From the NCBI RefSeq assembly GCF_054482525.1, contig NZ_CM137006.1: a DNA stretch of 64,000 nt; one strand, given 5' to 3'. A program made the position numbers. Numbering within the stretch: position 1 is the stretch's first letter; each line of letters starts with the position of its first letter. Shown here piece by piece: positions 27,001 through 36,000 of this stretch.

Positions 27001-30000
27001 TATCTCTTCGATGAGCGAGTTATTAAAGAATATGGCGCTCAACGGATACGGCATTGCCTGGTTACCGATCTGGTCGATCGTCGATGAACTACAGACCAAA
27101 CGTCTGATATGCCTTGATGCTGCTAAATTGACAGTCCCCATTCAGGCTTATATTTACCGAATGAACACCCGACTGAATAGAACCGCCGAGAACCTCTGGC
27201 GTATTTTACAGGAACATATGCCAGACGATTTAATCCAGCAGATATCAATGGAAGAGCCAGCACGCCGCAATTGACGACGTGCAATAAATATCCTCCGGCA
27301 TAGCCGGAGGTTTTTCAAATGCGCCTATAAGGCTCTCTTACCAGCCGCGCCCTAACAGGCGCACACGATCTGACATTTGCATCCAACTTCGTTACTTACG
27401 GTCCGTAAACGGGCTGCCCGGACAGGGAATCGATAACTGCTCTCCCATTTTATCCTCTTCAAGCTGGTGCTTTATGTAATCCTGTATCTTCGCCGTGTTC
27501 TTACCCACTGTATCGACGTAGTCCCCCCTGCACCAGAACTCCCTGTTCCTGTATTTGAATTTCAAATCACCAAACTGCTCGTAAAGCATCAGACTGCTTT
27601 TCCCTTTCAGATATCCCATAAACCCGGATACGCTCATTTTGGGCGGGATCTCCACAAGCATATGGATATGATCTGCACAGCATTCAGCTTCCAGAATCCG
27701 TACGCTTTTCCACTCACACAGCTTTCTCAAAATACTGCCTGTTGCTCTACGCTTCTCTCTGTAGAACACCTGTCTTCGGTATTTTGGCGCAAAAAACTAT
27801 GTGATATTTACAGTTCCATCGGGTGTGCGCTAAGCTCTTTTCGTTCCCCATTGGGACCCCCTTTTGATTTCTTGTTTGACACTTGCAGTTGCCAGACCGC
27901 AAGGTGTTTTAACAAATCAAAAGGGGTTTTAATAACTGGCTCAAAGCTGAAAGCTTTCCGGAACCCCCAGCCTAGCTGGGAGTTTTCTGTGCACAAAAAA
28001 ACCCTGTAAAAAACTTACAGGGGTATAAGGCTTAGCCTAACTTGCGTCTGTTGCATGGTGCCGGGTGCCTCCCGGTGAATTCAGTCGGTGTCACTGAACC
28101 CGCGTAGGCTTCGCTCATAACATAATAAATGCTATGTACACCAGTCGCCCCACCGCACAGGGGGATTCACCACACGGCGCACTTTTTAACAAATATCCCT
28201 CCGGCCAGACAATAATAAACATAATGAATTGTGATCTTCTTAACAGTTTTAAAGTGTTACAGATAACATGCCAAGTAATTGCTTGTTTTTTCATCAATAG
28301 GAAGACCACACCAACAACCCCAGCTATCAGCCAGAACCGACATTATCCGGCTGATAAAATCTACCATCACTCCAACACCAATCACCGCCTGTGCCAGATC
28401 GCGTTTCTCAAACTTTTTAATCTCTGTTGCCACTCTGCGGGTTTTCTTTTTGAATTTTGAAAATACCAAATATCGTGACGTTTCTTTGGGGGATGAGCTA
28501 TCAAGCGGGAACGATCTGCCTACAGAGAAAGTCAGCCAGACCACTCTGCAAATTATCCCCGAAAGGCTCTGTGGCTGATATGCGCCGGGCATGGCGCAAT
28601 GGGCCAGTGGCAGTGTGTGATGGTGGCCCTTACTGGATTTGAACCAGCGACCAAGCGATTATGAGTCCTCTTACCACTGAGCTAAAGGGTTGGAGAACGC
28701 AATATCACCTGTCTTATATGATTACACCCAGAATTTCCCGGACTGTCTTGTCAAAACATTCAGTCTCCAATTCCCACCAATAGCAAGACGGTCACTATGA
28801 CAGCATCTCCGGAATGAGCTCAGGGCACGGGGGTTTACCGAGGTTACTTTTCCAACGAAGTTTCTCAAACGCAGGCGTGATAACATTCAAACTTAGGATC
28901 TCAGTTGCTATCTTTTCCCATGTCTTACGGATTAATGTCATCGGTTGCATACAAATCGCTACAAGCTGCATCAAGGCACATGCTTCATATGTACAGTACA
29001 CCAAGATGGATAGGTGTTTCACCTAATCCTAGCTCATTTCAGGCAGGCTCAACAGGCTGCAGCCCGCATGTTTAAGGGCGCAGGTTATCAGCAGGTTATA
29101 AGCTGACCGGATACATTCCGGCAAAGAAAAACCTTGCAGCGATGAAAGCCGTTTCGGTAATGCAATGACGATAAAGCTGTCCTGTATATATGTGCTTCGC
29201 CTCAAACGCTTGCCGTTTTGGTATTGTGCACATGCCGTCTGAACGATGTGGAGCCAGAAAAATGGATGCGTTATGTCATTGAGCATATCTAGGACTGGCC
29301 GGCAAACCGGGTACACGATCTGTTGCTCTAAATAGTTGAGCTGGCCTCTCAGTAAATATCAATACGGTTTTGGTGAGCCGCTTACCACTGAAGCATCACT
29401 TCGGCAGGTAGATTTCTGCAGGCAGAATGGCGCTTACCTTAGCGATAAGCGCGTAAATGTGGTTATTCAATACCTGTGGTGACTGTAAAAGTGCGCGTTT
29501 GCTGCGGTGCAACCTGAATCAGCGTGCCATTACGTTGCGCGGCAAGATACCCCTCAGGTCGACAGGTTGCTGGTAATGCAAAGGCGGCTACCTGTTGCTC
29601 GCCGTTATAAAGGATCCAGCGTGTCACATAATTTAGTTCAGCACTGGAGAAACGAGTAACAAACGTAGTGCCATCGGGAGCGATCATGCGAAACTCTGGC
29701 TGATCTGTGTAAGCGTCCAGTTTGTCTGCAAAGAAGACTATTTCTGGATCATAAAATTCCGGTTGATTCAGCGTCGACAGAGAGGCTTCTCCCTGCATAA
29801 TCCGTTGATTAAACGCCAGCCACTGGGCGGTGGGATTAACATGCGAAGGTACTGATTCACGCAACCTTAATATTTCGTCCGGTATATTCTGGCTGAACGT
29901 AGCATTTGGTATATATGCATAATTCATGTGGCACATATATTGTAGTGGCATATCTACAGAAGCCAGATTGGTTACGGCCATCTTAATATCGAACAATGTA

Positions 30001-33000: not shown

Positions 33001-36000
33001 CAATGTTTACTAACGCCAAAATGTTATTTTTATAACATTCTTACGGAGAGAGAGTTGATGGAAACGAAGCAAAAAGAGCGTATCCGACGTTTGATGGAAC
33101 TGCTTAAGAAAACCGACAGAATCCATTTGAAAGACGCAGCGCGAATGCTGGAAGTTTCTGTAATGACTATTCGTCGCGATCTCCATCAGGAAGATGAACC
33201 TCTGCCACTGACCCTACTGGGTGGCTATATTGTAATGGTGAATAAACCCGCGCCATCCATGCCAGTAATCCATGACGTTCCAAAAAATCATCGTGATGAC
33301 TTACCTATTGCAATTCTGGCTGCCGGAATGGTTAATGAAAATGATCTGATCTTCTTTGATAATGGTCAGGAGATACCACTCGTTATAAGCATGATCCCGG
33401 ATGCAATCACCTTCACCGGTATCTGTTACTCACATCGCGTCTTTGTTGCGTTGAATGAAAAGCCTAATGTAACAGCAATACTTTGTGGTGGTACGTATCG
33501 TGCCAGAAGTGATGCTTTTTACGATGCCAGTAACTCTTCGCCATTAGACTCTCTCAATCCGCGAAAAATATTTATTTCCGCCAGCGGTGTGCATAATCAC
33601 TTTGGCGTCAGCTGGTTTAACCCTGAAGATCTTGCCACTAAGCGTAAAGCGATGAACCGTGGACTACGGAAAATTTTGCTCGCCCGCCACGCGTTGTTCG
33701 ATGAAGTGGCCTCTGCCAGCCTCGCACCGATCTCTGCATTTGACGTTCTGATTAGCGATCGTCCGTTACCGGCAGATTATGTTACGCACTGCCAGAATGG
33801 TTCTGTAAAGATCATTACACCTGATTCAGAAGACGAATGACTTACTGAAAAAACACCACAATCTTGTTAAACATCGTCGGATTGGACTGATTACGTTGCA
33901 CTTTCACCACATATTCCAGCTTATCTATTTGGCTTATCACCTACTCCAGACGCTGGTCATCCTTGACCAGTAGCCAGATATGGCTTTTGTCGCAGTCCTG
34001 AATCGGCAGGCAGAGAATGTCTTCAACGTTAAGAGCGCGACGGGCAAAAGCCCACAAAGGTGAGTCATTACACCCGGATGGTAAACAGGCACTTCCTTGT
34101 TGTAGAAGCCGTTATATTGTCCATAATGTCTGGGTTTTTAATGCATACTGGGTAACAACCGGACGAATCTTCGAATATCACTGGCGCTGCCAGCCGGTTT
34201 GAATTCATCTCACAACCCTGCATAGAGCGAATCTCCTGCCTGCACGTCACTCCACTCCATGGTATCAACTTCACACTCTTTATCTGCGGCTAGTTTCAGC
34301 CACCAGATAAGCATCGACTATGAAAGATGAGCCATGACAACATAACGTTGGTAACGCTCTGACGCCTTAATGGAAGATGCCTGCCACCATAGGGAATGTA
34401 AACGACTGAAGTGTGGCCTTTAATGCCGTGAACGGCTCATGGTCTCCTGGCACGGTTGCCGCCCCAACCTGTAACAACATTCCACAGTACAATGTCTGTC
34501 AGAGTCAGAGCCTCCCATGCTTGTTGTAGTAACTCTACCAGTTACGAACATCCTTCCTCAAAATTGTTGTCATATCTCGCATGGAAGAAAAGATCCTGGC
34601 TAAGGAGCAACACACAACGTATTGCGGAACTTGCATATTTTTCCTGTAACTAGTGTATTACCACATATGGTAATAGCTACCTGTGTGGTTTCGCTGGATA
34701 GCAAGGGGATTTATTCGCAAGTAAAATGCCTGATAAAATACACGAATCTAGTAATCATCAATATTTACTCTGGTCGAATGACGCGTGAAGTGGACTGCCA
34801 GCAGACGCGGCCAGTGGTCCACCGCCTGCTGAACAAAACGCCAGATATCTCCCGGCTCTGAAAGTAACGCTTCGGTTATTTGCACGGAATACTACTCCTT
34901 CAGACTCTGTTAAGTTTTGTTTGTTAAACCGGTGCAGACCTGCAGGAAAGCATGCCAGCACCGGCACTGTACGATATAAACATCCGGTACCGGGGATACG
35001 AATGGAATGACGAATACGCCAGAAAAGGGATAACAACCTTCCTCATAATGGTGAAATCATTCGCTATCGGTTACACGGTACGCGATGTCGCCAAAGGCAG
35101 CTGGATCGACGAATCCACGGTCACGCTACCGAAAGCGCCGCCGCTTAACACCCTGCCTCGGGCGACCAAAGTGCCGGAGCCGCAGCCGCCGCAGGAAGAT
35201 TACACCTTTGAAGGTTACCGCAACGCCGACGGCAGCGTGGGCACCAAAAACCTGTTGGGTATTACCACCAGCGTGCACTGCATGGCAGACGTTGAGGACT
35301 ACGTGGTTAAAATTATCGAACGCGACCTGCTGCCGAAATACCTGAGCATCGACGGCGTGGTCGACTTGAACCACCTCTACGGCTGTGGCGTAGCGATTAA
35401 TGTACCGGCCGCCGTGGTGCCAATTCGCACCATCCATAATATTGCGCTGAACCCAAACTTCGGTGGCGAAGTGATGGTGGTGGGCATGCAGTGCGGTGGC
35501 AGCGACGCGTTCTCCGGCGTTACCACTAACCCCGCGCTGTCGGCTACGACTCTGACCTGCTGGTGCGCTGCGGCGCAACGGTGATGTTCTCCGAAGTCAC
35601 TGAAGTACGCGACGCCATTCATCTGTTAACGCCACGCGCCATCAATGAAGAAGTGGGCAGGCGTCTGCTCGAAGAGATGGCCTGATACGATAACTATCCC
35701 GATATGGGCAAAACCGACCGCAGCGCCAACCCTTCGCCGGGCAACAAAAAGGGCGGCCTCGCCAACGTGGTAAAGAAAGCACTCGGCTCCATTGCTAAAT
35801 CGGGTAAAACCGCAATTGTTGAAGTGCTGTCGCCCGGTCAACACCCGACTAAACGCGGATTAATTTACGCCGCGACGCCAGCCAGCGATTTTGTCTGTGG
35901 CACGCAACAGGTGGCTTCGGGTATCACCGTGCAAGTGTTTACGACCGGCCGTGGTACGCCGTACGGCCTGATGGAGGTACCCGTCATTAAAATGGCGACC

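Follow-up and report, generated by a model that had tools for sequence, protein, structure and literature searches.

The locus carries four intact genes. Three of them, deoX (29463..30476, 337 aa), deoP (30488..31804, 438 aa), and deoK (31832..32752, 306 aa), lie on the minus strand, and deoQ (33058..33840, 260 aa) is transcribed divergently from the plus strand. Positions refer to the window, which is the whole 64,000-nucleotide stretch of DNA that was analyzed. An ORF listing alone begins deoK at 32779 (ORF 31832-32779, minus strand) and deoQ at a TTG at 33055 (33055-33840, plus strand). We place the starts at 32752 and 33058 from an RBS and ATG that are conserved across 13 genera, and RefSeq has both at the same positions. 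A reading made from the sequence alone had proposed a deoxyribose utilization operon at 29463-33840, deoX-deoP-deoK with a divergent deoQ, and the ORF listing bears this out, with no frameshift or stop in any of the four ORFs. Domain searches recover each of the proposed product types, namely a PfkB/ribokinase-type kinase, a FucP-type MFS permease, a DUF4432 (aldose-1-epimerase-like) protein as the mutarotase-like gene product, and a DeoR-family regulator. Of the 80 species loci, about 60 keep the order deoQ|deoK-deoP-deoX. The orientation, the gene lengths, and the small gaps between the genes are likewise shared with the Salmonella locus used in the locus comparison and with about 60 loci from other species, and we count the gene lengths as equal to those of Salmonella (deoK/deoP/deoX/deoQ of 306/438/337/261 aa in Salmonella and 306/438/337/260 aa here). 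The gene order, the orientation, and the comparison with characterized DeoK all agree in identifying the deoK operon (deoQKPX).

The kinase scores 213 bits against Pfam PfkB and is identical at 305/306 positions to the DeoK of E. coli AL862/55989/CFT073, strains that are stated to grow on 2-deoxyribose (PMC6452873, Appendix Fig S11); the single difference is T80I. Its amino acid identity is 95.8% to Salmonella DeoK, for which kinase activity and a role in deoxyribose growth have been documented experimentally (PMC13432705), and 37% to E. coli RbsK, which makes it an orthologue of characterized DeoK rather than of the ribokinase. The catalytic motif GAGD249-252 is intact. Met10 and Tyr16 are both present in the kinase and invariant in 80/80 orthologues, whereas RbsK has Asn at both positions (Asn14/Asn20). 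Met10 was reportedly mutagenized by Tourneux et al. in 2000, work that is said to bear on this side chain as a substrate-discriminating residue. In RbsK, Asn14 binds ribose, and the substitution N20Y, equivalent to DeoK Tyr16, arose during laboratory adaptation to deoxyribose (PMC6452873). The PDB holds no solved structure of DeoK itself.

The other three proteins are identical to common E. coli alleles. DeoP, a predicted FucP-type MFS sugar:H+ symporter and putative deoxyribose permease, matches MFS_1 and has 95.7% amino acid identity to Salmonella DeoP. DeoX scores 59 bits against Pfam DUF4432 and is 83.7% identical to Salmonella DeoX. A PDB sequence search returned no sequence-level relative of DeoX, and a fold search was therefore needed. 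The AF2 model (pLDDT 81) has as its best Foldseek match 3TY1, a putative aldose 1-epimerase, with a TM of 0.76, followed by the GalM family, and by this model DeoX has a mutarotase fold and may act as a deoxyribose mutarotase/pyranase. DeoQ contains HTH_DeoR and a DeoRC sensor domain (Pfam), is 84% identical to Salmonella DeoQ, and belongs as an exact sequence to the UniRef100 group Q67FX0_ECOLX. It reaches 230 bits against NF007961 DeoR, slightly under the cutoff of 244, and we therefore regard it as a DeoR paralogue.

The 305 bp between deoK and deoQ contain several conserved elements. An operator-like palindrome, TAACATTAGCATGTTA (32796..32811), overlaps the putative deoK promoter and is conserved in 13 genera; it is the sole match of its type within the 64-kb window, where 0.15 would be expected by chance. 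The -10 region of this promoter differs slightly from that of the other genera in the 13-genus alignment. Upstream of the deoK promoter lies a TGTGA-N6-TCGCG block (32826..32841), which runs from AATCGCGATC to AGTCACAAATG and is invariant in the same alignment; we infer from it a CRP-like site, which suggests catabolite control of deoKPX. For deoQ, a promoter scan found a putative promoter, TTTTCA-17-TATAGT (32959..32987, plus strand), the -10 element of which falls on an invariant ACTATAC block of the alignment. A second operator-like palindrome, ATGTTATTTTTATAACAT (33021..33038), is located between this promoter and the deoQ start; its ATGTT..AACAT arms are conserved, and it too is the only match of its type in the window (chance expectation of 0.10).

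Taken as a whole, the stretch is very probably an intact deoQKPX module for the catabolism of free 2-deoxy-D-ribose. DeoP would take up 2-deoxy-D-ribose, and DeoX probably interconverts its anomeric or ring forms to give the form preferred by DeoK. DeoK would then convert deoxyribose to deoxyribose-5-phosphate, which the core-genome aldolase DeoC, encoded like DeoR outside the window, would cleave to glyceraldehyde-3-phosphate and acetaldehyde. DeoQ is predicted to bind the intergenic palindromes and to repress both promoters, and deoxyribose would relieve this repression.

The names assigned by RefSeq/PGAP, which include "ribokinase" and "L-fucose:H+ symporter permease," would instead suggest an operon for ribose or another pentose or hexose, built from an RbsK-type kinase, a fucose-type permease, and a galactose mutarotase. 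The generic models agree with these names, as the kinase passes the ribokinase model TIGR02152 (367 bits, cutoff 300) and DeoP passes TIGR00885 fucP (324 bits, cutoff 280), and Salmonella DeoK does phosphorylate ribose as well, with a Km of 5.3 mM (PMC13432705). However, both proteins fall short of the more specific models: the kinase scores 252 bits against NF008353, for RbsK of the E. coli type (cutoff 341), and the permease 286 bits against NF007524, for E. coli FucP (cutoff 427). Identity to RbsK is 37%, against 96-99.7% to characterized DeoK, and Met10 stands in place of the ribose-binding Asn. The PfkB fold family and the GAGD motif are common to the two kinases, but the rbs operon has an ABC transporter where this one has an MFS transporter, its regulator is of another family, and the module has DeoX, with no RbsD homologue seen. 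Partner genes of the rbsABCD or fucIKA type are absent, and we consider a ribose or hexose operon extremely improbable. A second possibility, to which we give little more credence, is that the source strain carries the operon in a silent or defective state, as decaying cargo like its neighbors. The T80I substitution, the altered -10 region, and a terminator hairpin that has lost its T-tract might each be taken in this sense; residue 80 is Thr in 79/80 orthologues, the Ile allele is rare (found on 2 contigs), and the surrounding island is rich in pseudogenes. Set against this are the four intact reading frames, the exact match of DeoP, DeoX, and DeoQ to common alleles, the unaltered GAGD motif and Met10/Tyr16 pair, and the conserved promoter and operator blocks. 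Because the corresponding residue of RbsK is naturally Ile, the T80I change in DeoK is probably tolerated.

The deoxyribose module extends slightly beyond the interval first proposed. Immediately beyond deoQ, on the minus strand, lies an ilvN pseudogene fragment, ilvN' (33845..34082), which was delimited by tblastn and blastn and comprises codons 18-96 with a 1-bp deletion and an in-frame TAG. On the other side, downstream of deoX, homology to chromosomal loci ends at 29430, at a remnant of a terminator hairpin, GCGCTTA-N9-TAAGCGC (29430..29452, minus strand), which follows deoX in Salmonella and Citrobacter and follows ilvN in K-12. Since ilvN' belongs to the module, the whole spans 29430-34082, or 4.65 kb. 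The left-hand neighbors are an IS200 with a frameshift (27392-27984) and, at 28624-28691, a tRNA-like remnant that is seen by Rfam alone, at a marginal 30.7 bits against a cutoff of 29; ARAGORN calls no tRNA anywhere in the window. To the right is garD'-agaR-kbaZ' (35475-37409). The sequence-only reading had placed the operon between an IS200/tRNA remnant and decayed core genes, and these neighbors are indeed present, but what decays on the right is not the core loci themselves. The island copies of ilvN', garD', agaR, and kbaZ' are diverged duplicates, about 93-95% identical to native copies found elsewhere in the same genomes. Pseudogenes in the island include the IS200 tnpA, ilvN', garD', and aldolase fragments. 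An integrase (58184-59386) and repeats of a tRNA-Ser 3' end (59547-59560 and 59725-59740), the latter beside clpA at the serW site, place the module about 25 kb inside a tRNA-Ser-associated island. In strain AH65, the left part of the island adjoins the tRNA-Ser serX. A chromosomal serW-serX rearrangement was considered for the island ends and dropped; it is not needed, since a review table shows islands of this kind at either of the two sites.

Of 5426 complete E. coli genomes, 1593 (29%) contain the module, and this variable presence, together with its position inside a genomic island, upholds its description as accessory cargo. The block is missing from K-12, as had been proposed, and K-12 matches solely about 160 bp of ilvN. 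An orthologous locus is found in Salmonella. The deoK operon of E. coli pathogenicity islands (AL862; also 55989, CFT073, Nissle 1917, NCTC 86, and the LAC PAI of STEC) has the same four genes, with DeoK the same save for T80I, and is likewise island cargo that is flanked by IS elements and carries the ilvN' scar. Published deoK islands are at pheV and adjoin a vpe operon (PMC7545054, PMC6455142), whereas here the tRNA-Ser repeats lie at serW, no vpe operon is adjacent, and the left neighbor is the IS200 with the tRNA-like remnant. The deoQKPX operon of the window is thus already known biology, an ordinary intact copy of a well-described gene set.

Where the module came from is a separate matter. 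A passage in a paper citing Bernier-Febreau 2004 presents transfer from Salmonella as the prevailing view (PMC5382810). In Salmonella enterica, deoQKPX is chromosomal and native, between full ilvN and uhpA flanks, with the same order, orientation, lengths, and spacing, and with the operator palindromes, the CRP-like block, and the deoQ -10 element conserved with the E. coli copy. This shared organization, the ilvN fragment, which shows that the block derives from such an ilvN-deoQKPX-uhpA locus, and the roughly 96% protein identity of DeoK and DeoP would all fit a direct and recent transfer from S. enterica to E. coli. The E. coli copy, by contrast, is truncated at both ends and moved into an island, its intergenic region is about 20 bp shorter, and the identity of DeoX and DeoQ is about 84%. 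At the DNA level, per-gene identity to S. enterica is just 75-82%. Identity at third codon positions is 48-54%, no higher than the 51-62% that K-12 and Salmonella share in flanking genes of vertical inheritance, and GC3 is much lower in the module (34-47%) than in Salmonella (56-66%). Across species representatives, none exceeds 84% nucleotide identity in deoK, Citrobacter is slightly nearer than Salmonella, and the 80 loci kept include no match from Escherichia species other than E. coli. The ilvN' that was transferred along with the genes has its nearest counterpart in E. coli ilvN, with 89% identity when all columns are counted and 92.5-93.7% in BLAST alignments, and is 75% identical to that of Salmonella. 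An E. coli-like ilvN' scar, combined with synonymous divergence equal to that of core genes, does not support a recent Salmonella import, which we judge very improbable.

A module placed at its native ilvN-uhpA site in E. coli was also considered. It was rejected because uhpA and ilvN are adjacent in K-12 and ilvN' is truncated in all E. coli copies examined; the fragment is retained in every E. coli context that we examined. The scar of ilvN' at one end and the terminator stem at the other fix the exact limits of the module and show a single capture event, in which it was lifted from a chromosomal ilvN|deoQ|deoKPX|terminator locus. An origin that we hold about as likely as not is that the module either is a remnant of a chromosomal ilvN-deoQKPX-uhpA locus of the Escherichia type or once passed through such a locus. 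The 4.65 kb, made up of an E. coli-like ilvN stretch of 238 bp together with deoQ, deoKPX, and the terminator stem, would have entered an island as accessory cargo in one event and would then have spread among tRNA islands (pheV, serW/serX).

For the window itself, the value of these results lies mainly in annotation, since the RefSeq names (rbsK, fucP, aldose 1-epimerase, and DeoR family regulator) mask a specific and known pathway. The deo operon, with which some E. coli can use deoxyribose from degraded DNA, has been documented as a fitness factor. E. coli Nissle 1917, which has deoQKPX, is able to grow on deoxyribose, unlike K-12 (PMC7924626), and statements in papers citing Bernier-Febreau 2004/Martinez-Jehanne 2009 hold that deoxyribose use raises the competitiveness and gut colonization of pathogenic E. 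coli (PMC7545054, PMC6455142, PMC5382810, PMC7924626). What is added here beyond the annotation is solely evolutionary, in that the divergence data question the textbook claim that the E. coli operon came from Salmonella. If the capture from an Escherichia-type locus is correct, the native site would have undergone a clean deletion in most E. coli and in K-12, and deoxyribose use would be ancestral among enterobacteria, with a loss followed by its retention or reacquisition in the cargo of islands.

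The four genes are intact: deoX (29463-30476, 337 aa), deoP (30488-31804, 438 aa) and deoK (ORF 31832-32779, 306 aa) lie on the minus strand, and deoQ (ORF 33055-33840, 260 aa) lies on the plus strand, in agreement with the sequence-only reading. The deoK and deoQ starts were set at 32752 and 33058 by aligning the region between deoQ and deoK across 13 genera, because a GAGG ribosome-binding site and the ATG are kept at these positions; RefSeq uses the equivalent starts in identical E. coli genomes. Family searches confirm the kinase, FucP-like permease and DeoR-family regulator that had been proposed. 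DeoK is a PfkB protein that passes the generic ribokinase model TIGR02152 (367 bits), and DeoP is a FucP-type MFS protein (TIGR00885, 324 bits); neither reaches the cutoff of the corresponding E. coli model (E. coli-type RbsK and E. coli FucP, respectively). DeoQ has HTH_DeoR and DeoRC domains and narrowly misses the DeoR model (230 bits, cutoff 244), which makes it a DeoR paralogue. The third gene, deoX, encodes a DUF4432 protein.

At the protein level, the window and Salmonella share 95.8% (DeoK), 95.7% (DeoP), 83.7% (DeoX) and ∼84% (DeoQ) identity, and the gene lengths and spacing equal those of the Salmonella enterica locus, where the order is ivbL-ilvB-ilvN / deoQ / deoK-deoP-deoX / uhpA-uhpB-uhpC-uhpT. 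The kinase thus matches characterized DeoK; its identity to E. coli RbsK is only 37%, in line with a score of 172 bits against PDB 1GQT, so it does not fall among ribokinases with a different specificity. Work on the purified Salmonella enzyme showed it to be a kinase that the pathway requires (PMC13432705). All 80 kinases found in a deoKPX context have Met10 and Tyr16, where RbsK has Asn14 and Asn20. Mutagenesis by Tourneux et al. in 2000 reportedly showed that Met10 discriminates between deoxyribose and ribose. In RbsK, Asn14 is a ribose-binding residue, and N20Y, with N14D/S, is adaptive for K-12 growth on deoxyribose (PMC6452873). Three positions differ between the window DeoK and published E. 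coli DeoK, two being evident OCR artefacts and one, T80I, being real and the sole difference from the common RefSeq allele WP_000350265.1. Residue 80 (codon at 32513-32515 in the window) is Thr in the common E. coli allele and in all but one of 80 orthologues; the Ile form (WP_226131994.1) is rare, seen on only 2 contigs. Despite the near-invariance of this position, T80I is probably benign, because E. coli RbsK carries Ile at the equivalent position. The feature is real, a well-known accessory operon in its ordinary configuration.

A sequence search of the PDB found no relative of DeoX. Modeling with AlphaFold2 on the basis of 25 orthologues (pLDDT 81, pTM 0.83) gave a structure that matches the aldose-1-epimerase/galactose-mutarotase fold, with 3TY1 as the best match (TM 0.76) followed by the Bacillus and Lactococcus GalM proteins, and the earlier description of this gene as mutarotase-like is therefore supported at the fold level. 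On this model, DeoX may catalyze a mutarotase-type reaction on deoxyribose.

Footprinting revealed blocks in the deoQ-deoK intergenic region that are kept from E. coli to Trabulsiella (13 genera). One conserved block is an operator-like palindrome, TAACATTAGCATGTTA (32796-32811), which overlaps the putative deoK promoter and occurs once in the 64-kb window (0.15 expected by chance). An invariant candidate CRP block, TGTGACT..GATCGCGA (32826-32841), contains a perfect CRP half-site. A putative promoter faces deoQ (32959-32987), its −10 element TATAGT being the invariant ACTATAC block, and conserved operator-like ATGTT...AACAT palindromes (33021-33038) precede deoQ; this pattern is also found once in the window (0.10 expected). 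These predicted sites fit the picture of Christensen et al. in 2003, who reportedly described divergent promoters, both bound by DeoQ, with catabolite repression limited to deoKPX.

With coverage of ≥80% of 29300-34000 taken as presence, 1593 of the 5426 complete E. coli genomes have the module. K-12, in which uhpA and ilvN are direct neighbors, matches only ∼160 bp of ilvN, and the operon is indeed missing there, as had been claimed. The module lies ∼25 kb inside a ∼64-kb tRNA-Ser island, because the tRNA-Ser 3′ end is repeated directly (59547-59560 and 59725-59740, both with the same terminator-like sequence behind them) between a tyrosine integrase gene (58184-59386) and clpA, and because in strain AH65, which matches window positions 1-37000 at 99.9%, this island adjoins the tRNA-Ser gene serX on its left. 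The interval 59547-59870 looks like a serW attachment site. In contrast, deoK islands in the literature are located at pheV (PMC7545054, PMC6455142). The flanks of the module differ in other lineages of E. coli, where its neighbor is the vpe PTS operon or an IS66 element. The operon is accessory cargo, and the genes around it are of the kind that islands typically carry. They include an Ag43-type adhesin, remnants of IS600, IS200 and IS66, a malX-like PTS gene, a type I restriction-modification system with an embedded DarTG, an enterotoxin gene and a large AAA protein.

Several segments of the window carry features of their own. Between the tRNA-Ser repeats and clpA, two type I-F CRISPR repeat-like units lie just before clpA (Rfam CRISPR-DR4 at 59843-59870; CTGCCTGTACGGCAGTGAAC is present twice) and look like the clpA-side CRISPR remnant known from E. 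coli. The restriction-modification system (13375-21994) consists of hsdM (13375-15813), hsdS (15807-17147) and hsdR (18899-21994), and the DarT/DarG toxin-antitoxin pair (17160-18880) has been inserted between the latter two; the hsdS gene is intact in the window and frameshifted in strain elppa5. A ∼1.3-kb segment (47683-48992) missing from strain 266917_2 holds an IS3-type frameshift pseudoknot (Rfam ALIL, 48018-48134); it disrupts the gene of the large AAA protein, whose length is 4959 bp in that strain, and the ORF here has only 3192 bp (44366-47557). Left of deoX, the minus-strand interval 27392-28205 contains an IS200 copy with a frameshifted tnpA and adjacent Rfam matches to STnc490 (27861-27984) and STnc100 (27991-28205, 136 bits). 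A tRNA-like remnant (28624-28691, minus strand) with a CAU anticodon and a shortened anticodon arm scores 30.7 bits in Rfam (cutoff 29), was not called by ARAGORN, and resembles tRNA-Ile2 (ileX/ileY); possibly, an earlier island junction left it behind.

To the right, 35475-37409 shows no more than ∼95% identity to the core garD...agaR...kbaZ locus and is a second site in the same genomes. Within the duplicate region (34952-37678), agaR (36267-37091) is intact, garD′ has a frameshift and the aldolase is reduced to fragments; the prlF-yhaV toxin-antitoxin pair of the native locus is missing from the island copy. These genes are thus ruled out as core loci and, by this comparison, are diverged duplicates carried by the island: of the "decayed core genes" in the sequence-only reading, the decay stands and the core identity does not. 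The island looks like a patchwork of segments taken from the chromosome of a diverged, Escherichia-like genome.

In ∼35 Enterobacteriaceae species, full-length ilvN lies tail-to-tail with deoQ, and window homology to these chromosomal loci is confined to 29430-34082. The right end is an ilvN fragment, ilvN′ (codons 18-96), which has lost 1 bp and contains an in-frame TAG; the left end falls directly after a terminator-hairpin stem whose T-tract is lost. This hairpin is found 3′ of deoX in Salmonella and Citrobacter and directly 3′ of ilvN in K-12, so that deoQKPX constitutes a clean indel separating the ilvN stop codon from the terminator. The ilvN′ scar is kept in every E. coli context examined, and capture of the module was therefore a single event. 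In elppa5, a 2.5-kb IS66 (18855-21363 of its locus, L001) lies just right of ilvN′ and is missing in the window (34143-34155), marking the junction next to the module as an IS hotspot.

PMC5382810, in a passage citing Bernier-Febreau 2004, reports transfer of the operon from Salmonella to E. coli. DNA identity per gene between the window and S. enterica is 75-82%, and third-codon identity (48-54%) is no higher than that of the flanking core genes ilvB, ilvN, uhpA and uhpB between K-12 and Salmonella (51-62%). ilvN′ is E. coli-like: its identity is 89-93% to ilvN of E. coli, against 75% for Salmonella and 78-82% for Citrobacter relatives. GC3 of the deo genes is 34-47% in the window and 56-66% in Salmonella; by gene, the window values are 34% (deoK), 42.5% (deoQ), 45% (deoX) and 46.5% (deoP), so third positions are unusually rich in A and T. 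No species representative has deoK at >84% nucleotide identity. A recent import from Salmonella is therefore not supported by these comparisons. No searchable paper mentions deoK and ilvN together. The simplest reading, which we offer as a hypothesis, places the module, whether ancestral or an older acquisition, at an ilvN locus of the Escherichia type before it entered islands.
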